The translations under genes and the position numbers were made by a program. From a virus: a stretch of DNA of 64,000 nucleotides. Positions 38,012 through 58,451 of the stretch are shown here, in pieces. The stretch spans positions 1 through 64,000 of the IMG/VR virus record IMGVR_UViG_3300044641_010328; one strand, 5' to 3'. Under the pieces are notes generated by a model that did not search any database, was not told the DNA's origin, and saw only the letters and a list, made by a program, of their open reading frames with translations. Each line of letters opens with the position of its first letter. The stretch's first letter is position 1.

Positions 38012-38275
38012 CTAGAGTCCCTCGTAGTGTTTGAAGTCCTTCTGCGTGAGGACTATCTCGTTTCCGTCGCCGCTGTGCGCAATTATGCTAATCTTTCCCT
38101 TCAGTATGCGAACATCATCGACTGTGTACGTGAGGCCTGACTTCTTGTGGATGATCTTAAAACCGGGTGTGATTAGAATCTTTTGGTTCTTTCCCTTTCC
38201 GACAGATACTTTCAGTGCTTCCTGAATGTATCTCTTCATCATATCCTGGATGTCATTTCCTGTGATTGTTCTCAT
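38012..38275 (-). CDS. Hypothetical late protein
   Basis: 87 aa; ATAAATA upstream. Confidence 0.65.
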   Translation of the reverse strand: MRTITGNDIQDMMKRYIQEALKVSVGKGKNQKILITPGFKIIHKKSGLTYTVDDVRILKGKISIIAHSGDGNEIVLTQKDFKHYEGL

Positions 38276-38741
38276 CAGCTGAATCCGCCATTATGTTATT
38301 TATCTTCCTTACACGAATTCCTGCCACATTAAGCAGCCCTATGCCACTAGAATCTCTATATTCATCTCTGTAGACGACTTCTGAGATTCCTGCGTTGATT
38401 ATTGCCTTTGCACACATCTTGCAGGGACTCATGCTAATATACATTATCTTCTTCTTCGGGTTGTTATAGTCAAGCTTAATAAGAGCATTAACCTCAGCAT
38501 GAATGAACCCAGACTCTCCTGGATCTGATGATTCACGAGTGTTTGGTCCGCCTGCGTGATCACCGTTATATCCTAGAGCAAGAAGCTGCGTGTTATCGCT
38601 TGTGACTATTATTGAAGCAACCTTGTGAACTGGATCATTTGACCTCTTCTCTATTGTTCCAATGACCTCAATCCAGATTTGGTCCCAGGATGGTCGATGC
38701 TGGTAGGTGTGTCTGAGATCATCTAGAAAATCACTTGCCAT
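38253..38741 (-). CDS. dCMP deaminase
   Basis: RPSWD, GYNG, HAEVNA, SPCKMCAKAIINAGI. Confidence 0.92.
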   Translation of the reverse strand: MASDFLDDLRHTYQHRPSWDQIWIEVIGTIEKRSNDPVHKVASIIVTSDNTQLLALGYNGDHAGGPNTRESSDPGESGFIHAEVNALIKLDYNNPKKKIMYISMSPCKMCAKAIINAGISEVVYRDEYRDSSGIGLLNVAGIRVRKINNIMADSADENNHRK

Positions 38742-39582
38742 TGGCTTCTACCTTGCTATCAAAGATTGTCTCAATATTTGTGTGTGCAGGCAAAGCAAAG
38801 CCTGCAGCCTTGCGGTGACCGCCTCCTCCAAACCTCTTTGCAATTTCGCTTACATCGGAGTCTTCGTGATGTGCTCTCAGACTTACCTTTACCTGCTGCG
38901 TATCGTGATCATAGTACCAGATTACCGCGAAGTCGCACTTAGGAGAAAGTGCAGCACCAATCTCGGACATCCAGTGCGGAGAATTGACAACAAGAACATC
39001 CTTACCTCCCATCTTTCTAGGAGCAGCCTGCTTCGCGATCTTGGAGATCACGGTCTTCGAGTATGCGAGAATGTAGGCGCCGCGCTCCTGCGCACTGTCA
39101 ACCGCCGAATCGTCGAGGTACTTGTCAAACTCCTCGAAGTCATACGGTACCATGTCAAATGCAGCGGAAAACTCCTTGCTGTACGGAATTTCCCAACGCC
39201 AAAGGTCTCGGTCCTCAATGAACTTAATGAGGCGCGGTGCTTCCTTGCCGGGATGGAAGAACTTCCAAGCAAGCATTGCTCCGCTGTGGTTCATGTCGAA
39301 CCGAGTGCAAGTGACATCATGGAGCTCAACAACAGCAGACTTGTGGTGATCGATAATAAGAAGGTTCTTGGCTTCCTTCATCAGTCGTTTTGTTGTCCCG
39401 TTGTCATAGGAGAAGTCGAGAACAACGACATTCTTTCCAGAGACATCTGGAGGTTGCTCTCCGTGCTTTGCTGCGTGATATTCAGCTCTATCTCCTAGCA
39501 GCTTCCAGGCTGAATATGCTGCACCAAATCCATCAGTGCAATTTGCATGGTAGATCACCAGATCGACGCTACCCGGATCCAT
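38731..39582 (-). CDS. DHH/DHHA1 phosphoesterase
   Basis: YHANCTDG, LDFS, IDHH, DRDLW, GGGGHRKAAGF. Confidence 0.92.
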   Translation of the reverse strand: MDPGSVDLVIYHANCTDGFGAAYSAWKLLGDRAEYHAAKHGEQPPDVSGKNVVVLDFSYDNGTTKRLMKEAKNLLIIDHHKSAVVELHDVTCTRFDMNHSGAMLAWKFFHPGKEAPRLIKFIEDRDLWRWEIPYSKEFSAAFDMVPYDFEEFDKYLDDSAVDSAQERGAYILAYSKTVISKIAKQAAPRKMGGKDVLVVNSPHWMSEIGAALSPKCDFAVIWYYDHDTQQVKVSLRAHHEDSDVSEIAKRFGGGGHRKAAGFALPAHTNIETIFDSKVEANGK

Positions 39583-40139
39583 CAGAAATCCTGTACTCGA
39601 TTGTGGTGATTCCAGCACCTTGGTGCGTATAGCTCAGATCCTCCCACAGCTATCTCCTCTAGGTTTTCAACCTTTCGATCTGTGAAATATGCATCTGCTC
39701 CGCATGTCGTACAAACTGCAGAGCACTTCTCAACGTGTGTTGCCCAGGGTAGTATCTCCTTGATCTCAGGAAATACATTGCACGAGGCAGACATCTCAAT
39801 AGAGGCAACCACGACTGTGAACCCTGTCCTGTACAGAGAGATGAGCGCATCAGCAACGCCATCAATCATGAATGCTTCATCAACTGCAATTACATCGGGT
39901 CGTGTCTCTTGTGCAGTCACAAATCTAAGAATATCCTCGCCATTTGATACATTTATTGCAGGAATCTTTCCGCCGTTGTGCGTGCAGATCTCGCTCTCTG
40001 TGTACCTGTCGTCAAGACGGGGCTTGAATGCGAGAATCTTTAAACCCTTGTACCTAAATCTATCGACAAGCGCGATGAGTCGCGTTGTCTTTGAACCCAT
40101 CATTGGGCCTGTAAAGACATGAAAACTTGGGTTGATCAT
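39582..40139 (-). CDS. tdk: Thymidine kinase
   Basis: GPMMGSKTT, VDEAF, CTTCG, VGGSELY.PRC. Confidence 0.92.
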   Translation of the reverse strand: MINPSFHVFTGPMMGSKTTRLIALVDRFRYKGLKILAFKPRLDDRYTESEICTHNGGKIPAINVSNGEDILRFVTAQETRPDVIAVDEAFMIDGVADALISLYRTGFTVVVASIEMSASCNVFPEIKEILPWATHVEKCSAVCTTCGADAYFTDRKVENLEEIAVGGSELYAPRCWNHHNRVQDF

Positions 40140-41131
40140 TTGAGCTTCCACCATTGAAGAGTCCTCTCTAGTCCATCCCAAAATGTGACCTTAGGTACAT
40201 ATCCAAAGTCACGTTGAGCAGCTCCATAATCACCTAGCGTGTGCATAACGTCTCCTTGTCGCCAGGGAGCATTAACAACCTCAATATTCTTGAACTCACT
40301 CATAAGATGCTCAAGAATCTCCTTGTTTGATGTGCGCTGGCCACAGCAAACATTATACCTCTCACCCGTAAACTTTTTAAGTGAAAACGCTGCAAGCACG
40401 TTTGCATCGACGACGTTGTCAACGTAACAAAGATCTCTAGACTGTGTCCCGTCTCCGTCAGACCTCAAGGGCGTTCCAGCCGATATTGCATTGCACCATG
40501 CTGAAACCGCTGTCGAATAGGGTGAATCACCCATCTGTCCCGGTCCAAATACGTTAAAATACCGCAGAAGGACAACATCGAGATCGTATAGCCTGCTGAA
40601 TAGTGCTGAAAAGTCCTCTAGGCATGACTTCTGTAGTGCATAAGGAGACTTTGGACTCTTTGGTTCAGATTCAGACGTTGGCATGACGTCAGCGCCTCCG
40701 TACACTGAGGAGGAGGATGCAGCAACGACTCTTCGTACGTTTCCGACGCACGCCTTGATTAAGATGACATACTTCATAAGATTTTCATCAGTTGTCTCAA
40801 CTGGGTGCTCAACAGAGTAAGACACGCGTGGGACGGCTGCCTGGTGAAAAACGACGTCATATTTCTTCTGATGGATCCTATCAAGCACAACAGGCGACGC
40901 AAAGTCATCCTCTATCACCCAGACCTGACTCGGATTTCTGCTATCAATCTGTGACTCGTAGATTGACACAAGATTTCCAATGAATGTCTTGACATCAAGT
41001 CCAGAAAAATTATCCAGACTTCCATTCACCATATTGTCAACCACGTCTACTGTGTGCCCATCAGCAACTAGACGCTTTACGAGGTTTGAGCCAATGAATC
41101 CGGCTCCTCCCGTCACTAGAACATTTGCCAT
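40136..41131 (-). CDS. NAD-dependent nucleotide-sugar epimerase/dehydratase (extended SDR)
   Basis: TGGAGFIGS, SSSSVYG, YALQK, LRYFNVFGP. Confidence 0.93.
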   Translation of the reverse strand: MANVLVTGGAGFIGSNLVKRLVADGHTVDVVDNMVNGSLDNFSGLDVKTFIGNLVSIYESQIDSRNPSQVWVIEDDFASPVVLDRIHQKKYDVVFHQAAVPRVSYSVEHPVETTDENLMKYVILIKACVGNVRRVVAASSSSVYGGADVMPTSESEPKSPKSPYALQKSCLEDFSALFSRLYDLDVVLLRYFNVFGPGQMGDSPYSTAVSAWCNAISAGTPLRSDGDGTQSRDLCYVDNVVDANVLAAFSLKKFTGERYNVCCGQRTSNKEILEHLMSEFKNIEVVNAPWRQGDVMHTLGDYGAAQRDFGYVPKVTFWDGLERTLQWWKLK

Positions 41132-41164: not shown

Positions 41165-42037
41165 CTAAGGAACAATGTGTGCACAATTTAGGCACACTTT
41201 GACTCGAATATCTCTAGATTCAAGACCAATCAAATTCTGAGCCTTGAAACCAATGTGAATCAGCGCATCAAGATCTATCTTCAGATTTTTTGGCACGTTG
41301 GTTGATCTGCACACAATGTCAAGGACATCATGCTCTGGTCTATGCATAAATCGAACGTATGATATGCAGCTTGAATTTGCTGTTACAAACCTACGGGATC
41401 CTGCTCCCTGACCCGACTCCATCTCTTTTATGATTCTGTCCATAAGATCATCATTTATCTGCCCGTAATATTCCTCTTCACCTGGCACTGAGAGTGCACC
41501 TGGTCCGAGGTTGTCAGACTGAGATGCAATCACCTCAAACTTCAAATCAAGAGATTCATTTCTCCCTGTGGCAGACAGCGCACTCTCAACATAGTTTGTC
41601 ATCTTTTCTGTGCTTACAAACTCTCTGCTATGAACAATGTCGCGAACCGCCTCGGGATCTGGAATTCCCTTGCATGTAATCACAGAAGGATGGTCTCTCA
41701 GCGCCAGTGATTGTGTGTTGAATGCCTCCCACGTGGTCCGTAGTGAACCAAGGTCGTGCATCTCATCGCCTCTGGCAGCAAACCGCGCTGTAACTGTGCT
41801 CCATTCGGGTGCAAGAAAGACGACAACATTATTCAAATCATCGAGAAACCTGTGAAGCTCGCCGGACTCGTGGCTGTTATCACGGCCAAAGATCTTTGGA
41901 TACACAGCACGACTGATGTGACCCCGATCTCGAATATCATACCTGAAGTTTGTAGACCTGTGAAGTTGTCCGTAGAAAGTTGACTTGCCCGAGAGATCAC
42001 AGCCCTCAAGAACAATCTGCCTTGTTGGTAGCCTCAT
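41165..42037 (-). CDS. dNMP kinase fused to a thymidylate-synthase-like domain
   Basis: N-terminal LEGCDLSGKST...DRGHIS..VY; C-terminal SRR...SCIS..F...CRSTNVPKNLKIDL...CAH. Confidence 0.75.
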   Translation of the reverse strand: MRLPTRQIVLEGCDLSGKSTFYGQLHRSTNFRYDIRDRGHISRAVYPKIFGRDNSHESGELHRFLDDLNNVVVFLAPEWSTVTARFAARGDEMHDLGSLRTTWEAFNTQSLALRDHPSVITCKGIPDPEAVRDIVHSREFVSTEKMTNYVESALSATGRNESLDLKFEVIASQSDNLGPGALSVPGEEEYYGQINDDLMDRIIKEMESGQGAGSRRFVTANSSCISYVRFMHRPEHDVLDIVCRSTNVPKNLKIDLDALIHIGFKAQNLIGLESRDIRVKVCLNCAHIVP

Positions 42038-45000
42038 ACCTGAATCTTCCTCATCTTGTTATTGTTCGTGGAGAATCCCCAGTTCGGATCCTTGCTGACC
42101 TCTGCGATGTAGATCTCGTAGTGGTTAAGTGGCATCTCGCCCCAGATCCGGAGATTGACCGTCTGCATCTCATTATCGCACACCTGTGCCCGAATGAAAC
42201 CTTTACCATTCTTGGTCTTCTTTACATTGAAGTCCTTCACCAGGAACCAGCAGATCCCCTTCTCATTGTCGCCAACCTCAGTGATCGGACCAACCTGTGC
42301 CTTCTTGATCTTGGCGATGATGTCCTCGGGGAACATCAGGTCCTCACGAGAGGTCGAGGTGAGATCGAAGTACATCTTCAGCTTCTCAGATCGAGTCCAA
42401 TCCGGAAGATTCTCGTAGTTCTCAAACAGCTTCCAGAAGGTGACCTCAGGCTGCCGACCTTCCTTGATCAGCTTCTTCATCTCGGTCTTGGTGTATCCGA
42501 ACCGACCGCGCCTGAGGATGTCGTAGTTCTTTTCCTCAGTCAGGGTCGCCAAGAGCTGGCGGTGATTTGTCACCTTGCCGGACTTGAAGTCCTCCAGCGA
42601 TCGAAGCGCCTCGACGCTGCAGAGCGAGGTGAGTGTGGTCTTGTTCACCTTTGAGTGCCTCCAGGCGCCGTCCTCAGTGTACAGCATGGACTCGATCGAG
42701 ATGTAGGGGCGGTTGTCCATGATCTCGGCAACAGCCGTTTCGCCTACTCCCTTGATGGAGGACAGCGGCGGAACGAAGCCCTGCAGTTCGTGGCTGTACA
42801 TCCAGACAAGACCCGAGCTATTGATGTCTGGTGGGTGGATCTTGAATCCCTGCTCCTTGATCTCAGTTGCAACCTTCGCAAGGCCTTCGGGATTAGAGTT
42901 CTCGGACTGGAGGCAGGTGGCAAGCCATTCCTCCTCGTAGTGCTTGTGAAGCCAGGCAGCGTAGTAGGAATCGACAGCATACGATACGGAGTGAGACTTG
43001 TTGAAGCCATATGCAGAGAATGCCTCGATCGTCTCGTAGAGCTCTGTCGCATCCTTGACTGACATGCCGTTCAGGTTCACCGCACCATCAACAAACCGCT
43101 TGCGAAGGTCCTCGCGCTCCTTGGCCTTCTTCTCATTCATGTCCAGAGACTTCTTGACCAGAGTCTTACGCATCTGATCAGATTCACCGGGATTGAAGCC
43201 AGCAAGCTTCTGTGCCAGGAGCATGAACTGCTCCTGGTAGACGACGAATCCGTGTGTCGGCCCGAGGACGTCCTTCAGGATTGGATGCTTATAGGTTGCA
43301 AGCCCCTTGTTCTTGACCTCGACATACTTCTTGTGGACACCGGCAGCGAGTGGACCAGGACGATAGATCGCGGTGATGGCGGACAGGTCCTCGATCGAGG
43401 TGGGCTTCGCCTCGAGGCAGAACTTTCGAGCACCGCTGTTTGTGAACTGGAAGACCTGTGTGAATCGCCCCTCGTGATAGACGTGCTTCCAGACGTCCTG
43501 GTCATCCATCTCGTTGTATCGAATGTTTAGATTCTTGTCGAAGAAGTCCTTGACCTGTGCGAAAGTCGGATCCTTGATGCCATGCCGTGTCTGGAGGACC
43601 ATTCGAATGCAGTCCTCAACCATCTTCAGAAGAGAGAGACCGAGGAAGTCGAACTTGAGGAAGCCGTTCTCCTCGAGATGCCGGAAGTTCATACCTTCAG
43701 ACCAGGGTGTCTGGATCTCACCGCGGACTGAGATGACCGGCATGTGATCCTCAAGCTTTGGGCAGATGAGGACGCCGCCTGCATGCCGGCCAATCGATCG
43801 TGTTTCCATGAAGAGAGACTGGACCTGCTCACAGAGCTCCGGATACTTCTCCATGAAGATCTTGTACTTTTCAGAGTACTTCATGCAGTCAGCGTGAGAC
43901 AGGACGTAGGTGCTCTTTTCCTCGTGGTCACCTAGTGCCCTGTGCATGACATCGTCCTGCAGCGGACCAGTGACCTCGTTCACCTCCTCGAACGGAATAC
44001 CATGGAACTTTGCGATGTCCTTAATCAGGGACTTCAGCTTCAAGGTATTGAAGTTCGAGACCGGAACAACAGAGGCCTCTCCGAATAGCTTGCGTGCCTC
44101 ATCGATTAGAACATCACGATCACCGACGTCAGTGTCGATGTCAGGCCACGCGACCTTGTGGCGACCGAGGAACCGCTCCCACAGGAGGTCGTACTTGATC
44201 GGATCAACCGATGTGATGCCGAGGACGTAGTTGACCAGAGATCCTGCACCCGATCCGCGACCAGGACCGATCAGCGTTCGATGCTGTGCACGGTCGAAGA
44301 CGAAATAGAGAGTGAGGAAGTAGTTCTCGAACTTGAGATACTTGATGTCATCAAGCTCCATCTTCAGTCGTTCGACGTATTCAGGTTTCGTGTGAAGACC
44401 GAGCTCAACAAGACCCTTCTTGCACATGTCAAGGAGCTGGTTGAAGGCAGTCTGCTCGGGCTTGTTAAAGCTCGGAAGCTTTGCAGAGGAATCGAAGGAG
44501 ATCTCCTCACACTTTTCCCAGGCGATGTCATGAGTCCGCTCGATCGACTCCTTGACCAGAAGCTCAGTCCCCTTGTAGAAGTCGTGCTGGTCCTTGTGAG
44601 CAAGGTACTCATCCCACATCTGCTGTGCGTTCTTAGGATACAGCTCGCACTTGAGCTCCTCGAAGGCAGGCAGCGTCTGCTTCTGCATGTCATCAGAGCG
44701 GCCGCCCATACGGCCAAGCTTCTTGTAGAGCTCACGCGCCTGCCAGACGTTCGGGCTGTAGTAGTGAGAATCTGCGGTCGCGATCGTCTTGATGCCGGTG
44801 CGCTTCGACAGGTCAATCAGGTGCTTGTTGGTCGTGTGCTGGATGTCAAGCTTGTTGAACTGGAGCTCGAGGAAGAAGTTGTCGATTCCAACCGCATCGA
44901 CAAATCGATCCGTGTGATTTTGGAGCTCACGCTGGATCTGCTCATGAGGCTTCTTCAGCGCCTCACCGCGAATCGAGGTCGAAGCAAGAAGGCCTCCGAC

Positions 45001-45591
45001 ACATGCAGTCGAGACCACAAGCCCTTCACCATGCTGCTTGAGCATGTTGTAATCGATGCGAGGAAACTTGTAGTAGCCCTCGACGTAGGACCGCTTGACA
45101 AGGTTGAACAGGTTCTTGAGCCCAGTTCGATTCTTGGCAAAGACGACCAGATGATACCGGCGCTTCCATTCATCTGCATCATCAGAGTCAACAGACTTGG
45201 TCTCCTCCTCGTCCTCGACAACAAGGCCTCCGGTCACCTCCTCCTCAGCGAGGATGTCAATCTTCTCAGGCTTGCCTTCCTCGTTCTTTGCGCGTTTTGC
45301 CTCGAAGTGAGCAGCGCGCTTCTTTTCCCAATCAAGAAGAGATGGGACAAAGTAGAACTCGACGCCATAAAGCTGCCGGTACTTACGTCCCTTACCCTTC
45401 ATTTTCCTAGAATAGGTGTGAGCGTGAGCGAGGCCGTTGCCGCTACCGTGGTCAGTCAGCGCCCATGCGTCCATGCCATTATGGAGGACCCAGTCGATGT
45501 GCTTATCAGGATAGCCAAGTCCGTCATTGACGCTGAAACCTGAGTGCGCATGCAAACCGACAAAACGATTCGGTGGTTCGATGATGCTCAT
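42034..45591 (-). CDS. dnaE: DNA polymerase III alpha subunit (DnaE)
   Basis: PHP motifs HAHS, TDHG, DSHY; GPGRGSGAGS, PDIDTD, HAGGV, KFDFLGL, YGFNKSH. Confidence 0.97.
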   Translation of the reverse strand: MSIIEPPNRFVGLHAHSGFSVNDGLGYPDKHIDWVLHNGMDAWALTDHGSGNGLAHAHTYSRKMKGKGRKYRQLYGVEFYFVPSLLDWEKKRAAHFEAKRAKNEEGKPEKIDILAEEEVTGGLVVEDEEETKSVDSDDADEWKRRYHLVVFAKNRTGLKNLFNLVKRSYVEGYYKFPRIDYNMLKQHGEGLVVSTACVGGLLASTSIRGEALKKPHEQIQRELQNHTDRFVDAVGIDNFFLELQFNKLDIQHTTNKHLIDLSKRTGIKTIATADSHYYSPNVWQARELYKKLGRMGGRSDDMQKQTLPAFEELKCELYPKNAQQMWDEYLAHKDQHDFYKGTELLVKESIERTHDIAWEKCEEISFDSSAKLPSFNKPEQTAFNQLLDMCKKGLVELGLHTKPEYVERLKMELDDIKYLKFENYFLTLYFVFDRAQHRTLIGPGRGSGAGSLVNYVLGITSVDPIKYDLLWERFLGRHKVAWPDIDTDVGDRDVLIDEARKLFGEASVVPVSNFNTLKLKSLIKDIAKFHGIPFEEVNEVTGPLQDDVMHRALGDHEEKSTYVLSHADCMKYSEKYKIFMEKYPELCEQVQSLFMETRSIGRHAGGVLICPKLEDHMPVISVRGEIQTPWSEGMNFRHLEENGFLKFDFLGLSLLKMVEDCIRMVLQTRHGIKDPTFAQVKDFFDKNLNIRYNEMDDQDVWKHVYHEGRFTQVFQFTNSGARKFCLEAKPTSIEDLSAITAIYRPGPLAAGVHKKYVEVKNKGLATYKHPILKDVLGPTHGFVVYQEQFMLLAQKLAGFNPGESDQMRKTLVKKSLDMNEKKAKEREDLRKRFVDGAVNLNGMSVKDATELYETIEAFSAYGFNKSHSVSYAVDSYYAAWLHKHYEEEWLATCLQSENSNPEGLAKVATEIKEQGFKIHPPDINSSGLVWMYSHELQGFVPPLSSIKGVGETAVAEIMDNRPYISIESMLYTEDGAWRHSKVNKTTLTSLCSVEALRSLEDFKSGKVTNHRQLLATLTEEKNYDILRRGRFGYTKTEMKKLIKEGRQPEVTFWKLFENYENLPDWTRSEKLKMYFDLTSTSREDLMFPEDIIAKIKKAQVGPITEVGDNEKGICWFLVKDFNVKKTKNGKGFIRAQVCDNEMQTVNLRIWGEMPLNHYEIYIAEVSKDPNWGFSTNNNKMRKIQV

Positions 45592-46871: not shown

Positions 46872-47306
46872 TTATTCGATGTGTCCGTAGTAGGGCTCGA
46901 AGAGGGGCTTCCCTTCTGCAATGGATCGCTGGAGATAGTCGCGCAGATCCTCATAGGAGGTTGTAACCTTAACGCCAGATTGAGCTAGCATCAAATTGAA
47001 GTTGCCTGTGAGACCCTGCGCAAAGTAGACAATTGGAACGCCAGCGTTGTATGCCACACCTGCCTCAAAAATTGTGCCCATGTCCTTATCGCGCGTGTTG
47101 CAGAGAACAAAGTCAGCTGTTCGAATGTGATCAACATTTCCTTTGAATGTGTCCTTCTGAACCTGGAGAGAAGCTGTTGGGGGACAGATAAAGATCTTGC
47201 GCGGCGATGCAACATCAAGACCAAGATCTCCTAGCAAATTTTCCAGAGCCTCGACTTCCTCGAGCGCCTTAGGTGTGAACCAGCCAGATGCGAGATATAC
47301 CTTCAT
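46872..47306 (-). CDS. Nucleoside 2-deoxyribosyltransferase / nucleotide N-glycosidase family
   Basis: VYLASGWF, D.GT.FEAG.A, FNLML. Confidence 0.85.
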   Translation of the reverse strand: MKVYLASGWFTPKALEEVEALENLLGDLGLDVASPRKIFICPPTASLQVQKDTFKGNVDHIRTADFVLCNTRDKDMGTIFEAGVAYNAGVPIVYFAQGLTGNFNLMLAQSGVKVTTSYEDLRDYLQRSIAEGKPLFEPYYGHIE

Positions 47307-47347
47307 TTTGAACCTCACATAAACAATAGTGGCGCACATCGTTGTTT

Positions 47348-48043: not shown

Positions 48044-48045
48044 GG

Positions 48046-49654: not shown

Positions 49655-49662
49655 CTACTTTA

Positions 49663-50163
49663 TCACTCTTTTTCAGAATTAGAATCTTCTGGCGCGTAAT
49701 TCCTAACGTCCTTAACTCGAAGCGGCCTCTCACCGGGCTTTCTTTTTTCTTTCAGCGCTCCAGACTGCTGCATCTCCTGTACCTCTTTGGCTCGAGAAAG
49801 CTCAACATCAAAGGCACCCGGAACTCCTTTAAGAACGGTGCTGTGATACTCAAGTGCTTCAATAGACCCAGTGAGCTTATTAATCTCAGCTACTATCTGC
49901 TGCGGGAGAGTCTGAAGCCTTTGGTCAACTGTCTTTATCTCTGATTCCAGGAAAGCAGCACGAGATCCCTCTGGAACCCTAGCAGCGCGTTCAAGAATTG
50001 ATCCCATTGCAGCAGAGATCTGCTTGACAATATCAGAAACATGCTTTAGCTGTTCTCTTGAATTGTCTCTTTTGCTCATCAGAGAAGCGTGCATGACATC
50101 GGCATCTTGCATCGACTTTGATAGACTTGCAATTAGAACATTTTTTATAATTTCTTCTTTCAT
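49663..50163 (-). CDS. Coiled-coil hypothetical protein
   Basis: 166 aa; ATAGATA upstream. Confidence 0.65.
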   Translation of the reverse strand: MKEEIIKNVLIASLSKSMQDADVMHASLMSKRDNSREQLKHVSDIVKQISAAMGSILERAARVPEGSRAAFLESEIKTVDQRLQTLPQQIVAEINKLTGSIEALEYHSTVLKGVPGAFDVELSRAKEVQEMQQSGALKEKRKPGERPLRVKDVRNYAPEDSNSEKE

Positions 50164-50186
50164 GTCTAGATTCTATCTATCTACAG

Positions 50187-50221
50187 AAAAAATAAAAGGG
50201 CCGCCCCTTGCGGGGCGGCCC
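50187..50221 (-). terminator. Strong rho-independent terminator
   Basis: GGGCCGCCCC-GCAA-GGGGCGGCCC followed by TTTTATTTTTT. Confidence 0.9.
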
Positions 50222-50246
50222 AGTGCAGGCTAAGCCGTGAGGCTAA

Positions 50247-51896
50247 TTAGCGGATGACTGCAGCAATGACGTCGCCAGCCTTGACTGGGAAGGCAAAGTC
50301 GAGGCGATCGCTTGCAACGACAACCGAGTAGTCGGAATCCTGCACCATGAGCATGCCGTTGACGTAGACGTCGAGACGGCCGGCAGCGGCAGCAGAATCG
50401 GCAAGACCATCGAAGCGACCAGCGGCGAGGCTGACCTGGAATGGGTATGCGCCACCGGAGGAGGCGACATCGCTTGCAACGTTCTTGACTTCCTTGCCCT
50501 TGCCGCCGCCTGAGCCGGCTGCGAGGGTGTTGAGGGCTCCGACGATCGTCTCGGTGCTGCTGAAGGCGGCGATGAACGCAGCGCGATCACCGGCCTCAGC
50601 AACAGCGTACTGGCCGTCTGCACCGGAGAGCACGAGCTCGCCAGTGGTCATCAGCTTCAGATTGGCGCCGTCTGCGAGCAGGTCGTGGGCGATTCCAATG
50701 TTGAGGGCTGAGAACTCAGGTGCAGATGCAGTGTAGATCGCCTGTGGCAGTGCCCACACCGCGCCGCCGGCTGCATCAGCAGTGACGGAGAGGTGAGTGC
50801 CGCTGACGAAGTCGATCAGACCAGCAGAGACCATGGCCTTGCCACCGTCCGACCGCATGAGGCGGTTGGCGGTGAGGTTGCTGCCCGTTACGAGTGCAAA
50901 GGTGACGCTGTCAGTTGTTGCAACAGGCTGTCCGATTGCCACAGTGATGACTGCACCAGCTTCAGAGATCGTGACACCGGTTCCGGCTGCAAGGCGGCCT
51001 TCGATGGCATCGGCGAGATCCTGGTTAGCAACCTCAATGAGGTTACCGGAAGCATCAGCCCACACGAGTGCGGAGGTGAGATCGCCGGCCTGCAGGGTGT
51101 CAGCCATGAACTTGTCAGAGGCAACCCACTTGGTGTCTGCGTGGTTCCAAGAAAGGCTCTCGCCTGCCTCGGATCCAAGGAAGATACCAGCGCCGTCGAG
51201 TGATGCACCAGTTCCGCCCTCGGCGATAACAATGTTCTTGTCATCGACGGTGAGCGTGGTGGAGTTGACGGTTGTTGTGGTTCCGTTGACTGTGAGGTCA
51301 CCAGCAATGACCACGTCCTTGCTGAACAGCGAACCAGAGACTGTGAGCGTGCCGGCGGCGAAGGTCATTCTGCCGTCGTCGATCAGGTTCTTGTTCGCGT
51401 CAACAAACGTTACGCGGGTTGCGGTGAGGTTGGTGCCCTTGAACTTGGGAGCAACGAGTGCAGAGTCGATGCCGTCGTACTTGAGTCCCACATTGTCGAC
51501 GAGCTTCTTGTCTGGTCCGTGGAAGACGAGGGCGCCATCTGTGGTGCTGAGGTTGAGGGCCTTGACAGTTCCGGCACGGGCTTCGCCAGTTACGACAACG
51601 TCGTATCCGAACGTTCCTGAGCCGACGACTGCGAGGTCCTTCTTGACACCAAGAGAAGCGGCACCAGAGGCGTCAAGGTGATCGGCGAGGTCGACGATCT
51701 GAACCTTGGCGTATTCTCCGGCAATTTCTTCCTTGTAGTCAGCGGCACCGATGATGTCCTTGACCTGGCCACGAAGGGCCTCGAGGTCAATGGCGAGTGA
51801 ACCAAGTCCATCCTCGGACTTGATCTGCTCGGCACGCATCTTGGTGATTGAGCCCGAGGGCTGCAAGCTAAGGGCTGCGTAATCTTTATTTGCCAT
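50247..51896 (-). CDS. Virion structural/fiber protein
   Basis: GDLTVNGTTTTVNSTTLTVDDKNI motif; Ala/Gly/Thr-rich; LDVYVNG..DY C-terminal domain; strong codon bias. Confidence 0.8.
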   Translation of the reverse strand: MANKDYAALSLQPSGSITKMRAEQIKSEDGLGSLAIDLEALRGQVKDIIGAADYKEEIAGEYAKVQIVDLADHLDASGAASLGVKKDLAVVGSGTFGYDVVVTGEARAGTVKALNLSTTDGALVFHGPDKKLVDNVGLKYDGIDSALVAPKFKGTNLTATRVTFVDANKNLIDDGRMTFAAGTLTVSGSLFSKDVVIAGDLTVNGTTTTVNSTTLTVDDKNIVIAEGGTGASLDGAGIFLGSEAGESLSWNHADTKWVASDKFMADTLQAGDLTSALVWADASGNLIEVANQDLADAIEGRLAAGTGVTISEAGAVITVAIGQPVATTDSVTFALVTGSNLTANRLMRSDGGKAMVSAGLIDFVSGTHLSVTADAAGGAVWALPQAIYTASAPEFSALNIGIAHDLLADGANLKLMTTGELVLSGADGQYAVAEAGDRAAFIAAFSSTETIVGALNTLAAGSGGGKGKEVKNVASDVASSGGAYPFQVSLAAGRFDGLADSAAAAGRLDVYVNGMLMVQDSDYSVVVASDRLDFAFPVKAGDVIAAVIR

Positions 51897-51978
51897 TTTA
51901 GTTTCTCCAGTTGAGATTTTTGCTCAATGAGGAGACATTCCTCATCTGAGTCCAAACTCTAACATAACTGGAACTAAA
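51897..51978 (-). promoter_or_regulatory. Structured 5' leader occluding the RBS
   Basis: TTTAGTT-CCAGTT pairs with AACTGG-AGA-AACTAAA; inner hairpin ATGAGGA/TCCTCAT. Confidence 0.55.
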
Positions 51979-52058
51979 CTTGGCTTTTTGAGAGGGCCCA
52001 AATCTCTTATATTCTATGTATGCTTATCAAGAAAATTTATTCATAAATTCTAAAAAAA

Positions 52059-52277
52059 TTATCGTGAGTAAATCATCTTCTTTAGAGACTTCAAGTGAGC
52101 ATCAAATGTGCAAAAATCTCCGTTAAAAAAATCCAGGACGTGAGAAGCACACTCACTCTTTGAATCATCAAACTTAAAGATGAATTTTCCGCTAGACTCA
52201 GAATTTGCACTAATGAGCTTTACACCCTTCATTTTCAGGTAAGCAGCTACGGGCAGCTCTGATGTTGTGTAAATCAT
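52059..52277 (-). CDS. DUF5659-like small protein
   Basis: YTTSEL..AAYL...G..L......F.F. Confidence 0.65.
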   Translation of the reverse strand: MIYTTSELPVAAYLKMKGVKLISANSESSGKFIFKFDDSKSECASHVLDFFNGDFCTFDAHLKSLKKMIYSR

Positions 52278-52322
52278 TTTTGATTATCTCTTTTTCTTAA
52301 ATAGGCACGAGGAACATCAGAT

Positions 52323-53414
52323 CTACTCTGTATAGGAGTAAGTCGCTAAAAAAATATCATCATTTTCTATAGCACCACTAGGTAGCTGTATTTGCCTATT
52401 TAAAATTGCATAATCAGTATTTTGTGTTAAAAGCTGACCATTTCTAAAAATCATCAAAGATTGAACAGGGTCTGGATCTTTTTCAATTTGGAGCGCAAGA
52501 GATCCTGAGACTGTTATAAAAGATGCAATCTCATTGAATGAGAACTTTTTGACTGAAACTGATCGTGTGTACATCGTGATGATGACATCACTTGGATCGA
52601 GATCAATTTGTCCGAATAGAATATTTCTTCCTGAGACTATGTAGTCCTTTAGTGCACCTTGTGTTAGCAGCTGTCCGTTTAACCAGAGCATTACACTTGC
52701 AGAATTTGCAGGATCGAATGCCAGAGTGAATGTCTTATTCAATCCATCCATGGCGCCAGATGGAATCTCATTTAAGACTAGCTCTGTAAGTAGTCCGGAA
52801 GAGCCATTTTTTCCAAAAGAAGAAGGATCTGCGGTTGACGATATTGTTATTTGACCGCTGGATCCGGTTGATAGCGATATTCCCGATCCTGCAATAAGGT
52901 AGGGAGATCCATCAGATAGAGCTGTAAGCGATCCGCTTAATCCTTCCAGCGCAATAACAGAGCCTGTAACTACTAGGCTGTTTCCAACCTCAACAGGAGA
53001 CCCTCCAAAAATTCTTCCTTCAACATAAACATCGCCCCCAAAAAATACGGATGATGTAGATGAAAGACTTTCAACTGTGAGAATGGTACCAGAAGTGGAA
53101 ACAGTAATACTGCCATCGGCTCCTGATGTGATCTCGATTCCATTCCCAGATCGTATAAACGGTGAGCCATCAGACAGTGCCTGGATTGAGCCCATCGCTC
53201 CAGACAAGAATGTCACGGGACCAGTAAATACCGATCCCGTGACAGAAGCAACTACGCTAAAATCATTCTTTACTACAAGCAGTTCACCAATCTGTTGGCG
53301 AACAATTCCGCCTTGCGTGTCGAGCTGCAGTTCATTCTTGAATGCACCACCAGTTCCCGAATAGACGAGAACTGGTGCAAGAAGGTGTTCATCTACAACT
53401 CTAACAGCGGGCAT
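52323..53414 (-). CDS. Virion structural protein (fiber-like repeats)
   Basis: Two LSDGSP..G.GI repeats; two NGQLLTQ..DY domains. Confidence 0.75.
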   Translation of the reverse strand: MPAVRVVDEHLLAPVLVYSGTGGAFKNELQLDTQGGIVRQQIGELLVVKNDFSVVASVTGSVFTGPVTFLSGAMGSIQALSDGSPFIRSGNGIEITSGADGSITVSTSGTILTVESLSSTSSVFFGGDVYVEGRIFGGSPVEVGNSLVVTGSVIALEGLSGSLTALSDGSPYLIAGSGISLSTGSSGQITISSTADPSSFGKNGSSGLLTELVLNEIPSGAMDGLNKTFTLAFDPANSASVMLWLNGQLLTQGALKDYIVSGRNILFGQIDLDPSDVIITMYTRSVSVKKFSFNEIASFITVSGSLALQIEKDPDPVQSLMIFRNGQLLTQNTDYAILNRQIQLPSGAIENDDIFLATYSYTE

Positions 53415-53454: not shown

Positions 53455-54405
53455 TTAAAAATCTCTACGAGCCTTGTAATTACTCACAATCTCGTCAATC
53501 TCTCCTAGAATCTCATTCCAGAGCGTCCGGAAGTGTGGGACACCGCCATCTGTTCCGTTCATGTCATCTCGTGTGGCCTGGTAGATCGTGTCATTCGGGT
53601 GGTAGGTGAGGTGCTTCTCGCTGTCCTCGTCAGGCCAGTAGAGGTTGGTACCTGTTCCATTGCGGAATGTCTTGATGTAGTGCCATGCAGGCTCGCGAAG
53701 ATTGATCGCAACATGAGCCTCGGGGAAGACGCGGAGGATCTCACGTGCCATGAGTGCCGCAAGCATGTTATCCTCCTCAGGCTGGATCTGCTTGTCCTGA
53801 CGCTGCTTAATGAACATGAAAGCATCGCGGATGTTCATGCGCATGTAGTAGAACGTCTCGAGGCACTTCGGGAGGATATGACGAGCGTCCATGAGAGAGA
53901 TCTTCTTGGAGTCGACCATGTCAACATAGAGCGCCTTTGCATCCTCTACGTGATTCTTCCAGCGCTCATAGAACTCAGGGCTATTCTGGATCGAGCCTGG
54001 AACTAGGCTGCGCTCGTGAGAGAGCCAGCGATCACCTGTGCACTGCGCCGCAAAAGATCCGGCACGATGACGAATGAGATGAGTTACTGTCTGAGTATCG
54101 ATTCCACCCACAAGGAAGGTGAGACCGATTAGCTCCATTGCTGCAGGAAGGGCACGACCCGCAAAGACGTCCTCCATGGTCTTTGAGAGATCTGCTTCAG
54201 AAGCCTCAGCATAGGGAACATGCTTATCAGCCCACGTGGACTTAACGAAACAATAAACTGCCTGTCGGATCGTCTTTGGATCAGGGCTGTCGACAAGCTC
54301 GAGCTTAAGCGCATCGAGGCTATTTACGAACTTGGTTGTAGGCCGCTCGTCGAAACGAATTGCCATGGGAAGGTTAATGGGCTGTAGATCTAGATTTTGT
54401 GGCAT
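53455..54405 (-). CDS. Divergent ThyX (flavin-dependent thymidylate synthase) paralog
   Basis: THLIRHRAGSFAAQCTGDR (SxRY altered), DARHILP, MN.R....F...R. Confidence 0.8.
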   Translation of the reverse strand: MPQNLDLQPINLPMAIRFDERPTTKFVNSLDALKLELVDSPDPKTIRQAVYCFVKSTWADKHVPYAEASEADLSKTMEDVFAGRALPAAMELIGLTFLVGGIDTQTVTHLIRHRAGSFAAQCTGDRWLSHERSLVPGSIQNSPEFYERWKNHVEDAKALYVDMVDSKKISLMDARHILPKCLETFYYMRMNIRDAFMFIKQRQDKQIQPEEDNMLAALMAREILRVFPEAHVAINLREPAWHYIKTFRNGTGTNLYWPDEDSEKHLTYHPNDTIYQATRDDMNGTDGGVPHFRTLWNEILGEIDEIVSNYKARRDF

Positions 54406-54414
54406 TAATTTCTC

Positions 54415-55332
54415 CTATCGAAGATTATCGATGATTTTGGTCAAGTTTTCAACTAGAATCACGCCTTCTTGCCGCTGGAGTGATTTATTGTAAGGCTGAA
54501 TTGGGCTAAATGTCCGAAGTCCATGAGAGGCAAACTCTGCTGCATGCTTTGGCGAGTCATCTACACAGAAGGCAACGTGTCCTGCAAACTTTGACTGGAT
54601 GATCCAGAGGAACTTCTCTCCGCTGAAGGCTACATCATCAAAGTAGAGACCCGAGCTGTGAAGCCATCGTGCTGTGTCAAAGAGGCAGAGAGGATTGTCT
54701 GCAGGGCGTGCTGTCAGGATCTGGACCCAATACCCAAGTCGCTGTAGCTCATGCGTGAATTCGGCTGCATCACTGACAGCCGGAATGTCGCGAAGCTTGC
54801 GCTCTGCTATGAACTCCTTGAAGAGGCGCTCTGTGTTATGCCCTAGATCTTGAGCAGCTGATGCAGCATAGTACTCTGGACAGTCATACGAAATCACTGC
54901 TCCCTTCGTCTCAGCAAGCCACTCAAAGAACGAGCGTCTGAACTCTGCAAGCACATCATCCATGTCAAGGATTGCTACTGGACGACCATCCCAAGACTTC
55001 TTAGACAGGTTATGCCTGAAGTGAAGGTAAGCATCCTTGTCCTCGAAGGCATCAACAAGCTCTTTCTCATTGATGTCCCAGACATTCATGATTGCCATCA
55101 GATATCTGATCACATCAATGCTCTCATACAAGATCTTTGTCCGGTCTGGCATCTTGCGATCCATTCGGTGATCTTTGAAATTGATTGATGATACAAGATC
55201 TGAGATCTCAGAATGCAATTCAAGAGCAAATGATTTTGTCATCTGCTCTTTCTCTACGTCTGTGAATGTCTTGCTATCGAAGAAAAGATTAGAGAATGCA
55301 CGCTGACGATGCAGCATCTCTTTTAGGGTCAC
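54415..55332 (-). CDS. All-alpha dNTPase domain fused to HAD 5'-nucleotidase
   Basis: LHSEISDL...FKDH...YESIDVIRY; DMDDVL, LTARP, VDDSP. Confidence 0.8.
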   Translation of the reverse strand: MTLKEMLHRQRAFSNLFFDSKTFTDVEKEQMTKSFALELHSEISDLVSSINFKDHRMDRKMPDRTKILYESIDVIRYLMAIMNVWDINEKELVDAFEDKDAYLHFRHNLSKKSWDGRPVAILDMDDVLAEFRRSFFEWLAETKGAVISYDCPEYYAASAAQDLGHNTERLFKEFIAERKLRDIPAVSDAAEFTHELQRLGYWVQILTARPADNPLCLFDTARWLHSSGLYFDDVAFSGEKFLWIIQSKFAGHVAFCVDDSPKHAAEFASHGLRTFSPIQPYNKSLQRQEGVILVENLTKIIDNLR

Positions 55333-55341
55333 GTTAGTCCT

Positions 55342-55713
55342 CTAGTATTTACTCTTAATCCTATCGTGAATGATCCTATCTTTATTAACGTACGCCTCAA
55401 AAAGCTCATCAGGCGTAACTCCCATAATAATCAGAAGAGAGAGGAAGTAGTTAAAAGAGTCAACCATCTCCTCCTTGAATGCGGCTCGATCAAAATCGCG
55501 AATCTCTGTCTGTCGATGAGACTTTGCGTTCTTTAGCTCTTGCACTGCCTCAAAGACCTCTTCGACACCACGAAGTGCAAGATCTCTGAGATGTTGCTGT
55601 GTAGCCTTGTTTGTCAGATCGACAGGCATCTCTGGATAGACATCTGGGACCTGCTTCTGCAAGGCTGTCATGAAGTCCTTGCGAAGTTCAAACATTTGAT
55701 CGAGCTTGTCCAA
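55342..55713 (-). CDS. Dimeric dUTPase/dCTPase-like protein
   Basis: VEEVFEA....KN.K.H...KEEMVD...Y...Y..K..I...R. Confidence 0.8.
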   Translation of the reverse strand: MDKLDQMFELRKDFMTALQKQVPDVYPEMPVDLTNKATQQHLRDLALRGVEEVFEAVQELKNAKSHRQTEIRDFDRAAFKEEMVDSFNYFLSLLIIMGVTPDELFEAYVNKDRIIHDRIKSKY

Positions 55714-55714
55714 T

Positions 55715-55954
55715 TTAGTCCTCTAGAGACTCAGGTGGAGACATTGCGGCAATTGCAGCAATCATTCGGTTAAGGCTCTCATCAAATTTGCTGAGATAGG
55801 CGGGATCAGGAGAAAGCTGCTCTCGCTCATCGACAACCAGGCGAATCGTCCTGAGGTTGTCAACGATGTCAGTGCCTGATAGAATCGCGATCTGAAGAAG
55901 TCGTGCAATCTGTGAGATTGTGTCATCTGATAGTCCATAAGTCGTTGTTGCCAT
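55715..55954 (-). CDS. Hypothetical protein
   Basis: 79 aa ORF with AAGGA RBS. Confidence 0.7.
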   Translation of the reverse strand: MATTTYGLSDDTISQIARLLQIAILSGTDIVDNLRTIRLVVDEREQLSPDPAYLSKFDESLNRMIAAIAAMSPPESLED

Positions 55955-55963
55955 TTGTTTTCC

Positions 55964-56767
55964 TTATTTCTGAATTTCTGGGATCCAAAAGGTAGTCCGT
56001 CCGTCCTTCGTCGTCTCTCTCTTTACCTCTCTACCTTCTGGATCCTTGGGCTGATTGTAGACTGCAAAGCGGCGACTGTAATCTCCCTTTTGTCCATCAA
56101 AACCTGAAAATGTGTAGATGGTGGCGCCACCAGTCTCATATGACTTCCTAATAACATTCTTAATCACAGAATTGAGTGTTTTCAACTCATCTTCAGATAA
56201 GGTGTTAGTTTCTCTATGGGGACTGAGTCTGCTAAAATACAAGCATTCAGACTTTAGATAGTTTCCTACTCCGCTAATTACAGACTGATCCATAAGAACT
56301 TCTGCTAGCGTTCTATTCTTCTTCTTAATAGATCTAATAAAGACAGCGTCTGATACATCTTCAGCAAGCATATCTGGACCTAAAGTCTTCAGCTTCGCTG
56401 CCAGCGAATCTTTTTTGTCAATTAGTTTTAATGTGCCGAAGTTTCTCATATCATTGAAGTAGATCTCTCCTCCGTCGTCCAAATCAAACTGAATCCTGCT
56501 GTGCTTTCTCTCAACAGCTGACCAGCTTCCAGTCATTCCTAAAGTGTTGAAAATATGCATCCCATTGTCAAGACTGATGTAGATGAATTTTCCCTTACAG
56601 CCAACTTCAGAAACTTTGACATTCAGAAAATGATTCAGACTTTCCCATCCTTCAGGATTCTTCTTTGTGTAGCGTCCTGATAGAATTCTCATATCAGAAA
56701 TCTTCTTGTTCAAGATTCTTTCACGAATCCCGTCAGATACAACTTTTACCTCTGGGCCCTCTGGCAC
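55964..56767 (-). CDS. mutM: Fpg/Nei DNA glycosylase (zincless finger)
   Basis: PEGPEV, KGKF, LGMTG, D.RNFG, LMDQ..ISGVGNY, GRTT.W without Cys. Confidence 0.92.
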   Translation of the reverse strand: MPEGPEVKVVSDGIRERILNKKISDMRILSGRYTKKNPEGWESLNHFLNVKVSEVGCKGKFIYISLDNGMHIFNTLGMTGSWSAVERKHSRIQFDLDDGGEIYFNDMRNFGTLKLIDKKDSLAAKLKTLGPDMLAEDVSDAVFIRSIKKKNRTLAEVLMDQSVISGVGNYLKSECLYFSRLSPHRETNTLSEDELKTLNSVIKNVIRKSYETGGATIYTFSGFDGQKGDYSRRFAVYNQPKDPEGREVKRETTKDGRTTFWIPEIQK

Positions 56768-56781
56768 GTAACCTCCTAATT

Positions 56782-57204
56782 TTATTGACTATTTACCCAT
56801 CGCCAGTAATTCTTCAGCGCACCGTCCTTGGGCTCTGGAATCTTTGACCACGCATGATTACAGAAGATCTTGTATGCTGCAGCAGCGTAATCTCCGATCC
56901 CATACAGATCTTTCGGATCTCTCTTATCCCACGTCAGATAGTCCTGTGACATCTTGACAAGAGTCTTGCTTCTCCGATCTCCGAGACCAAGATCCTTGAT
57001 TAGATCTCTGACTTCTTCAGTGCTTGCATTCGCAGCGTCCTTTGCAGTTGGCCACCGATCAAAGAACTGCCACATAAGTGGTTCAGCTTCGACACGCTTT
57101 GTCAGATTGCAGAAAATACAAACAACAAAAACACGCCAAGGATCATCCTGGACGTGTTCTTGAATGAGGTTGTAGGGTGAACGCGGTGCGTGCATACCAT
57201 ACAA
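56782..57204 (-). CDS. MBD4-like HhH mismatch (T:G/U:G) DNA glycosylase
   Basis: PRSPYNLIQE....DPW......N.T, LGL...R...L.KMS.DY, LYGIGDY....Y.IFC, P.D..L..Y..W. Confidence 0.85.
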   Translation of the reverse strand: MYGMHAPRSPYNLIQEHVQDDPWRVFVVCIFCNLTKRVEAEPLMWQFFDRWPTAKDAANASTEEVRDLIKDLGLGDRRSKTLVKMSQDYLTWDKRDPKDLYGIGDYAAAAYKIFCNHAWSKIPEPKDGALKNYWRWVNSQ

Positions 57205-57818: not shown

Positions 57819-58451
57819 TCAATAGCCAAATGCTTCAATTGTGTCTCGGAATGGGTTTCCTGGAATTTCTTTGACCTGACTTAGCATGTCCTCTGCAAGC
57901 CAGCAAATCTCTCTCTGTGCATCTGGCTTCAATCGAAGCCCAAGAAAATGCGAGAATGATCGCCAGTTGAACATAACGTCCATTGTGATCTGATTTCCAT
58001 ATGGAAGGTAGAAACGTGCAGATTCCTTTGCTCGCTTCCTGCTCATTCCGCCATCAACAAGGCGCCTGAGTGTGTCATGATATCGCATGATTGCGTCTTC
58101 CATGAAGGCAATGTACCGAGACTGCTCTTCCAGGGGCCAATCTTTGGGAAGATAGTACTTGTCATCCTTCAGCTCCTTGTACCTCGCTGACTCAGCATTG
58201 ATTGAGACGCCAATTCTATGCTTTAGTAGCTGAATGTGCGTTGCACAGTCGACAGTTGCGAGAAAGTGCAAAGAGCTTTTCTCAAATGGCGTCTCGTGAC
58301 CATTTTCAGCCAGCATCCTTAGAAGCGCCGGAATTCTTTCATGCTTTTCAGGTGTAAGATCTCGGCTTGTGCTTGTCCACGCTGATAGCGCATGAACATC
58401 ATCGCCGCCGTACCACCCGACTAGCTCAACCTTGTTTTCTTGAAATGACAC
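57819..58451 (-). CDS. thyX: Flavin-dependent thymidylate synthase (canonical)
   Basis: GHETPFE, QLLKHRIGVSINAESARY, ESAR..LP, NWRSF.HFL.LR...AQ.EI. Confidence 0.92.
   Translation of the reverse strand: MSFQENKVELVGWYGGDDVHALSAWTSTSRDLTPEKHERIPALLRMLAENGHETPFEKSSLHFLATVDCATHIQLLKHRIGVSINAESARYKELKDDKYYLPKDWPLEEQSRYIAFMEDAIMRYHDTLRRLVDGGMSRKRAKESARFYLPYGNQITMDVMFNWRSFSHFLGLRLKPDAQREICWLAEDMLSQVKEIPGNPFRDTIEAFGY

Follow-up and report, generated by a model that had tools for sequence, protein, structure and literature searches.

To our knowledge, all phage makers of non-canonical pyrimidine nucleotides, whether of 5-hydroxymethylcytosine (hmC), 5-hydroxymethyluracil (hmU), 5-methylcytosine (m5C) or 5-hydroxycytosine (5hoC), are paralogs with the ThyA fold, and we know the ThyX fold only as a dUMP methylase or, in PolB, as a UMP/dUMP methylase. 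The subject of the present analysis is a gene for a ThyX-like protein (P0001) located in a 64,000-nucleotide stretch of viral DNA, called here the window, which corresponds to the first 64 kb of the 90,978-bp IMG/VR record IMGVR_UViG_3300044641_010328 (27% complete according to CheckV). On balance, the sequence comparisons favour P0001 being a member of an essentially virus-only sister family of ThyX that no longer makes dTMP and that works, within a cassette of MazG-type pyrophosphatase and kinase genes, on a pyrimidine deoxynucleoside monophosphate (dNMP). The gene is the following:

53455..54405, minus strand: ThyX-like protein P0001, 316 aa, with a QCTGDR variant of the ThyX signature and with N- and C-terminal extensions.

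A known gene set of this kind is that of phage T4, in which the dCTPase gp56, the dCMP hydroxymethylase gp42 and the dNMP kinase gp1 act beside the thymidylate synthase td (PMC13326640). The locus described here is similar in combining a pyrophosphatase with a paralog of thymidylate synthase (TS), a dNMP kinase and a true TS encoded apart, but gp42 has the ThyA fold, whereas the paralog pair here has the ThyX fold and is joined by an extra half-size ThyA-like protein, the mini-TS. In a second group of enzymes the ThyA fold has switched from folate to flavin and O2 and makes 5-hydroxy-dCMP, the ThyA homologues with N177D and D169N being flavin- and O2-dependent 5-hydroxy-dCMP synthases (PMC13326640). 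The mini-TS shares with these synthases (RB69 gp48, DLP3 gp80 and HY126 AfhB; PDB 9iqu/9iqc) Cys146, N177D and, in the window, D169N; however, they have a full-length ThyA fold and P0001 a ThyX fold, and ThyX-family proteins are unmentioned in that work (PMC13326640). Within the ThyX fold, the polyoxin UMP/dUMP C5-methylase PolB is a ThyX paralog that has acquired a new function and is kept in addition to a housekeeping thyX (PMC5954106). PolB (PDB 4p5a/4p5b) stands at rank 12 among the Foldseek matches of the P0001 model (E 2.4e-8), but it is a folate-dependent methylase that accepts dUMP, its profile similarity to P0001 is marginal (E 0.02), and it belongs to a bacterial antibiotic gene cluster, whereas P0001 is encoded in a viral MazG-kinase cassette.

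A ThyX-fold protein with a rebuilt active site

P0001 matches the Pfam family Thy1/PF02511 over residues 63-229 (E 1.2e-19, 71.3 bits for a cut-off of 24.8), and with TIGR02170, the NCBIfam equivalog of ThyX, it reaches 46.8 bits, under the cut-off of 87.9. A single-sequence search of the PDB returned noise and marginal ThyX matches, and a profile search was needed. An AlphaFold2 model built with 20 homologues in the alignment had a mean pLDDT of 79, and its best PDB matches in Foldseek were all ThyX or PolB (Mycobacterium tuberculosis (Mtb) ThyX, PolB and Thermotoga maritima (Tm) ThyX). For the flavin-dependent thymidylate synthases (FDTS or ThyX, EC 2.1.1.148; TM0449, Mtb ThyX), E-values were about 1e-8 to 1e-7 and TM-scores to the target 0.6-0.75. 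Membership of the ThyX family, proposed in an earlier note made from the window sequence alone, is thus borne out by the PF02511 match and by the fold. The same note had described an extra C-terminal segment of ~70 aa; the extension exists, but it measures ~87 aa past the Pfam domain, and ~30 extra residues are also present at the N-terminus. The C-terminal extension carries conserved aromatic-rich motifs, GTNLYWP and DTIYQ (D.IY in the family; alignment A1), and no nucleic-acid-binding domain was detected in P0001 by the Pfam and NCBIfam searches. The N-terminal Met-Pro (MPQN) was considered as a possible catalytic proline; it is kept in the close clade, but in only 27 of 56 diverse motif-bearing representatives.

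Two trivial explanations were discarded. A chance ORF at 53455-54405 is ruled out by more than 1179 homologues and by the invariant block Q105..VTH109.IRHR114...AQCTGDR126, and a pseudogene or decaying copy by the strong conservation across the family (alignment A1).

The active-site geometry of P0001 was taken from sequence alignment to solved ThyX structures, residues being mapped through a family-profile hidden Markov model alignment to T. maritima ThyX and renumbered to native residues. The full RHRxxSxxxxSxRY signature of ThyX is absent, the actual sequence being RHRAGSFAAQCTGDR. Its first half is retained, with R112-H113-R114 at the positions of R78-H79-R80 and S117 at that of S83, whereas in the second half S88, R90 and Y91 are replaced by C122, G124 and D125, followed by an Arg at R126; S88C, R90G and Y91D are invariant across the P0001 family. 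The N-terminal H-x-H-E-[ST]-P-x-E-H motif has become R84-A-L86-P-A88-A-M-E91-L92 (H51R, H53L, T55A and H59L), in which E91, the equivalent of E58, is the sole residue retained. These are the two changes that the earlier note had read as SxRY becoming CTGDR and H..S..EH becoming RALPAAME, and the T. maritima alignment confirms both. Further replacements are R74 by T108, Q75 by H109 and N85/E86 by A119/A120 (N85A, E86A). By contrast, N191, R175 and R202 keep N163, R147 and R174, the two arginines being invariant in alignment A1, as are their equivalents in the distant alignments A3 and A4.

In T. maritima ThyX, S88, R90 and Y91 assist methylene transfer from the flavin carbinolamine and R174 activates dUMP (PMC8316439, PMC11940539), and the S88A, R90A and Y91A mutations strongly slow the reaction (PMC8316439). 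The pattern in P0001 divides along these lines. With the equivalents of E58, R78, R80, R147 and R174 in place, P0001 would still bind flavin and nucleotide. With S88, R90 and Y91 replaced, as well as His53, which we take to be the folate-stacking residue, it would be unable to run the folate/carbinolamine methylene transfer. The retention of the flavin- and nucleotide-side residues, the loss of those for folate and methylene transfer, the Cys at the Ser88 position and the Asp three residues further on suggest a different chemistry at C5.

A deep sister clade of ThyX kept beside canonical ThyX

More than 1179 homologues of P0001, of ~315-335 aa, were found in a 90%-identity database, and 465 cluster representatives in a 50%-identity library at E <= 0.001. 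In the close family (alignment A1) the invariant positions are Q..VTH.IRHR...AQCTGDR, R175, Q201-R202, IQP and the C-terminal GTNLYWP and D.IY. Beyond the close family, RHR often lacks its central His (RQR, RTR, RNR), and Q-C-[TS]-G-D, the arginines on both sides of that position and the counterparts of R147 and R174 remain. In a maximum-likelihood tree of 94 rows, the ThyX-like proteins form a clade of 54 rows (SH-aLRT 99), the sister group of which (SH-aLRT 98) contains canonical ThyX and an 'S-x-R-non-Y' phage variant, and a third variant (GGRDNDW, ~345 aa) branches between the two. The phylogeny against ThyX therefore places P0001 in a deep sister clade of more than 1000 members of ~300-350 aa, whose hallmark is Q-C-[TS]-G-D.

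This clade is almost entirely viral. Atlas clusters of the family are 86-97% viral, and the close-family pattern (A1) had zero matches in 185,579 species genomes, in which the distant-member pattern (A3) was found at seven loci of metagenome-assembled genomes (MAGs) from Patescibacteria, Gammaproteobacteria and Sphingobacterium. Of 50,697 phage records, only that of Geobacillus phage GR1 contains a full-length member, with 46% identity and the same QCTGDR, and GR1 is also the only cultured carrier found. Public records label the homologues as thymidylate synthase, and no published characterisation of the family was found in the literature on ThyX-like proteins, on ThyX with dCMP and phage, or on phage GR1.

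A canonical ThyX is encoded on the same strand, 3.4 kb from P0001, as the earlier note had stated:

57819..58451, minus strand: canonical ThyX, 210 aa, with KHR...S..ESARY (PF02511 E 3e-34; TIGR02170 99.1 bits for the cut-off of 87.9).

BLASTP found no significant similarity between P0001 and this protein, the kinship of the two being visible at the level of profile and fold only. In the tree, the canonical ThyX of the window falls in the canonical clade; a recent duplication of the phage's own thyX is ruled out by this separation of the two paralogs, and P0001 is thus an ancient paralog and not a local duplicate. The pairing recurs in other phages. Whole-record searches found both proteins in 13 of 26 long relatives, and among relatives at least 70% complete in three of four, with a gap of up to tens of kb between the genes. 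ThyA was not found in the record of the window or in phage GR1.

These data bear on the possibility that P0001 has remained a thymidylate synthase, in the form of a very divergent ThyX making dTMP by a variant mechanism. The ThyX fold and the retained equivalents of R78, R80, R147, R174 and E58 are compatible with such a role, as are the public annotations and the fact that the best PDB sequence match of P0001 is a solved structure of the T. maritima ThyX S88C mutant; phage GR1, moreover, has the ThyX-like gene and no other ThyX or ThyA. Nevertheless, four residues that matter for methylene transfer or folate (H53, S88, R90, Y91) are all replaced, three of them at positions where single mutations already slow the T. 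maritima enzyme strongly, and the TIGR02170 score, the deep separate clade, the coexistence with canonical ThyX and the constant place of the gene in a cassette that has its own pyrophosphatase and kinase argue in the same direction. A thymidylate synthase function is therefore improbable, and the claim of the earlier note that P0001 is not a redundant copy of this enzyme gains support.

Two other phage variants of ThyX were seen among the viral loci L099-L164, and no discussion of either as distinct from ThyX was found in the literature. One, QQ[SA]xR[TVA]xD (~220-300 aa), adjoins DnaE; Pseudomonas PB1-like, Xanthomonas and Streptomyces phages gave partial matches that may represent this variant. 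The other, QHGGRDNDWRH (~345 aa), has a MazG-HAD fusion before it. Separately, a gene for a short glutamine-synthetase-like protein of 338 aa (58656-59672, minus strand; Gln-synt_N and a partial Gln-synt_C) adjoins the canonical thyX and is present in 10 of 82 related loci.

The cassette in the window and in its marine relatives

The source of the window is a large tailed phage whose relatives come from marine metagenomes. Nearly all genes of the record are on the minus strand, and they include those for a DnaE-type polymerase, DnaB, class I/II ribonucleotide reductase, ClpP, GroEL, superoxide dismutase, RecA, a gp32-like protein, tail sheath and baseplate. The neighbourhood of the ThyX-like gene was compared across the 82 related loci, made up of 80 IMG/VR loci and two stretches of phage GR1. 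The genes of the block are:

55715..55954, minus strand: o79, a conserved 79-aa ORF that heads the cassette (syntenic in 71 of 82 loci).
55342..55713, minus strand: stand-alone MazG-like nucleotide pyrophosphohydrolase, 123 aa (phrog_12184 E 3.9e-19; dUTPase_2 and PRA-PH weak; 77 of 82 loci).
54415..55332, minus strand: fusion of a MazG/dUTPase_2-like NTP pyrophosphatase with a HAD/NT5C 5'-deoxynucleotidase (NT5C 1.6e-5, dUTPase_2 2.6e-3, PHROG 173/415; 73 of 82 loci).
46872..47339, minus strand: protein of the nucleoside 2'-deoxyribosyltransferase (NDT) family, 155 aa (PF05014 E 4.2e-13; 75 of 82 loci, phage GR1 included).
42034..45591, minus strand: DnaE-type (Pol III alpha) replicative polymerase (Pfam DNA_pol3_alpha, PHP and finger domains).
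40136..41131, minus strand: NAD-dependent NDP-sugar epimerase/dehydratase (PF01370 E 5e-47), adjoining the kinase-mini-TS gene described below.
39582..40181, minus strand: thymidine kinase, tdk (PF00265 E 1.5e-35).
38253..38741, minus strand: dCMP deaminase (phrog_174 E 2.5e-37).

The MazG-HAD gene, the pyrophosphatase part of which is all-alpha, lies directly upstream of the ThyX-like gene. Its stop at 54415 is 9 nt ahead of the ThyX-like ATG, an AGGAGA ribosome-binding site overlaps the stop codon and no terminator-like site was found between the two genes, so that the ThyX-like gene is probably translationally coupled to the gene before it. The operon directly downstream of the dNTPase genes that the earlier note had described is thus confirmed by the short gap and the overlapping ribosome-binding site, and also by its recurrence in distant lineages.

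Across the 80 related IMG/VR loci the order is o79, MazG, MazG-HAD, ThyX-like, NDT, other genes, DnaE, kinase-TS fusion, epimerase, tdk and DHH; o79 had no family match in the Pfam and PHROG searches, and DnaE is syntenic with the cassette in 59 of the 82 related loci and in 33 of 80 distant loci. In the window, genes for fibre-like structural proteins rich in Gly, Ser and Thr (549 aa and 363 aa) and small ORFs lie between the ThyX-like and NDT genes (47348-53414, minus strand). As the NDT gene is directly downstream of the ThyX-like gene in most relatives, this segment would be an insertion in, or rearrangement of, the ancestral cassette.

Several of these neighbours allow a different substrate from a free dNMP to be considered. 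P0001 might act on a deoxynucleoside or free base supplied through the HAD nucleotidase, NDT and thymidine kinase, or on a pyrimidine of DNA or RNA bound with the help of the C-terminal extension. The NT5C-type nucleotidase domain of the upstream gene, the thymidine kinase in the same gene block and the aromatic-rich motifs of the C-terminal extension would fit such a role, as would the loss of the phosphate-binding R74 and R90 equivalents; the NDT protein, the commonest downstream neighbour, resembles a true NDT, aligning with the N-deoxyribosyltransferase of PDB 6evs (E 2.3e-11) including the catalytic Glu. On the other side, the phosphate ligand R147 has an invariant equivalent, the domain searches with P0001 showed none that binds nucleic acid, and the most widely conserved partners are the MazG-type pyrophosphatase, which yields dNMP, and the dNMP kinase, the HAD and NDT genes being less widespread. 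A substrate other than the free dNMP is accordingly very improbable.

The interval from the cassette to the canonical thyX contains two adjacent glycosylase genes (55964-57204, minus strand), one for an Fpg/Nei glycosylase (267 aa, three Pfam domains) and one for a small HhH-GPD glycosylase (140 aa), syntenic in 45 and 38 of the 82 loci, respectively.

The kinase and mini-TS partner

Downstream of DnaE, the window encodes a two-part protein that had no Pfam match:

41165..42037, minus strand: fusion of a dTMP-kinase/YorR-like dNMP kinase (~1-135) with a half-size ThyA-like mini-TS (~140-290), 290 aa (AlphaFold2 pLDDT 91).

The N-terminal half matches YorR and thymidylate kinases, and the fusion has profile matches to 2axp and 1b49. 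In Foldseek the top matches of the model were 9iqu/9iqc, the dCMP hydroxylase AfhB of phage HY126, followed by ThyA, T4 dCMP hydroxymethylase and YorR; the mini-TS aligned with 9iqu at E 2.6e-5 and a TM-score to target of 0.41 over 169 columns. The mini-TS (41165-41620) retains SRR, the catalytic Cys224 (equivalent to Cys146), R244-S245 and the C-terminal His. It has D255 at the N177 position and N247 at the D169 position (R244-S-T-N247), and so carries the residues that define the 5-hydroxy-dCMP synthases on a ThyA fold, Cys146, N177D and D169N; its relatives have N, D or H at the D169 position. What it does not have is the full-length ThyA fold with the N-terminal cofactor-side half. It measures ~150 aa in the fusion and 150-180 aa when stand-alone, compared with 217-246 aa for AfhB and T4 gp42, that is, about two-thirds of the length of the 5-hydroxy-dCMP synthases. 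The prediction of a complex between the ThyX-like protein and the mini-TS domain gave scores of 0.00 in both runs and was not used either way.

The cassette in unrelated phage lineages

Distant loci were scanned with profiles of the kinase half and of the mini-TS half. A strict order of MazG fusion, ThyX-like, kinase (~155 aa) and mini-TS (~180 aa) was found in L089 and in the six MAG loci L167-L172, so that the two halves fused in the window occur as separate neighbouring genes in other lineages. In L091-L095 and L097 the mini-TS gene comes directly after the ThyX-like gene. In phage GR1 the start of the mini-TS gene overlaps the stop of the ThyX-like gene, the genes for the kinase and for NDT are found a few kb upstream, a nitroreductase-type flavin reductase gene is directly upstream of the ThyX-like gene and a glycosyltransferase gene is nearby. 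In the distant loci L092 and L094 an epimerase gene directly precedes the ThyX-like gene. The sub-clades L086-L088/L090 and L096/L098, in which no mini-TS was found within 8 kb, still have MazG upstream and the kinase downstream, the latter sometimes fused to a domain like that of uracil-DNA glycosylase (UDG). Apart from the cassette, the phages that bear it are unrelated, and their polymerases are of family A or of the DnaE type.

The repeated pairing raises the alternative of a two-component system in which the ThyX-like protein would be an NAD(P)H-dependent flavin reductase or carrier, and the mini-TS, having lost the N-terminal, cofactor-holding half of ThyA, would be the true dCMP C5-hydroxylase of the AfhB type. 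Such a division of labour would account for a mini-TS that is nearest to a flavin-dependent dCMP hydroxylase, yet much shorter, and that in the window bears both substitutions of the 5-hydroxy-dCMP synthases, D169N (N247) and N177D (D255) (PMC13326640). It would also suit a ThyX-like protein that retains the flavin-side residues and has lost those for folate and methylene transfer, and two genes that are adjacent or overlapping in GR1, L089, L091-L095, L097 and L167-L172. A simple reductase, however, would have no need of the invariant Q-C-T-G-D loop or of the R147 and R174 equivalents, and GR1 has its separate nitroreductase-type flavin reductase just upstream. The hydroxylases of RB69, DLP3 and HY126 have been described without a dedicated phage reductase (PMC13326640). 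In addition, some ThyX-like lineages have no mini-TS nearby, and the mini-TS found with a ThyX-like protein can also have Asp or His at the D169 position. Taken together, this alternative appears rather unlikely, although the cytosine-specific step could belong to the mini-TS rather than to the ThyX-like protein.

Other neighbours of the ThyX-like gene vary between lineages and include a TylF-like O-methyltransferase, an FkbM-like methyltransferase, a radical SAM protein and the kinase fused to a UDG-superfamily domain; coordinates of such lineage-specific neighbours are L087:8870-9442, L091:7208-7990, L098:9299-10351 and L086:4564-5547. This variety hints at a lineage-specific elaboration of the product.

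Proposed function of the ThyX-like protein

The preferred reading, that P0001 acts on a pyrimidine dNMP without making dTMP, places it at the dNMP-modifying step of a non-canonical pyrimidine pathway, on the basis of its most conserved partners, the pyrophosphatase and the kinase, and of the logic of the T4 and 5hoC pathways. In a first step, the MazG-type pyrophosphatase would turn a canonical dNTP into the dNMP. The ThyX-like flavoenzyme would then alter C5 of this pyrimidine dNMP, in most lineages jointly with the mini-TS. Finally, the dTMP-kinase-like kinase would phosphorylate the product, which would thus become a substrate for the phage polymerase.

As for the product, an oxygen-bearing group at C5, 5-hydroxy or 5-hydroxymethyl, can be put forward as a rather speculative candidate by analogy. 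It is favoured by the precedent of flavin and O2 use in the ThyA fold, by the nearby O-methyltransferase, epimerase and glycosyltransferase genes and by the flavin reductase of GR1. In a putative oxygenation scheme, Cys122, which occupies the Ser88 position beside the pyrimidine, would be the C6 nucleophile and Asp125 the acid. A broader proposal, equally to be taken as tentative, is that the ThyX-like protein and the mini-TS form an undescribed two-protein, flavin-dependent C5-modifying system, widespread in phages of marine and other uncultured origin, that replaces a canonical DNA pyrimidine with a new base; one candidate would be a 5-hydroxy-pyrimidine, subsequently O-methylated or glycosylated.

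Several observations weigh against parts of this scheme. As phage GR1 lacks another thymidylate synthase, such a role is possible for the ThyX-like protein there. The sub-clades with no mini-TS within 8 kb show that the pairing is not universal. The invariant R174 equivalent, which in ThyX activates uracil N3, argues for a uracil-type substrate, whereas the mini-TS points to cytosine, and because no equivalent of the phosphate-binding R74 and R90 is left, the substrate may be something other than a 5'-monophosphate. Lastly, a Pfam search with 40 further ORFs of the 91-kb record showed no glycosyltransferase among the 25 listed of 30 matched families.

If true, the two-protein system would bring chemistry other than methylation to the ThyX fold for the first time. 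A virus-only sister family of more than 1000 members, with its rebuilt active site and its conserved cassette of pyrophosphatase and kinase, would suggest that modified phage DNA arises in the ocean by a new and abundant route, with consequences for the evasion of restriction and CRISPR, for biases in sequencing and metagenomes, and for flavoenzyme chemistry. As Geobacillus phage GR1 is in culture, the question can be put to a direct test.

A further gene of the window (13337-13813, minus strand) encodes a 158-aa nucleotidyltransferase with matches to FAD_syn (30 bits for a cut-off of 27) and CTP_transf_like (33.7 bits). Judging from these matches, it may act as an FMN adenylyltransferase and provide FAD for both ThyX-type flavoenzymes, an NMN or other adenylyl- or cytidylyltransferase being equally possible.

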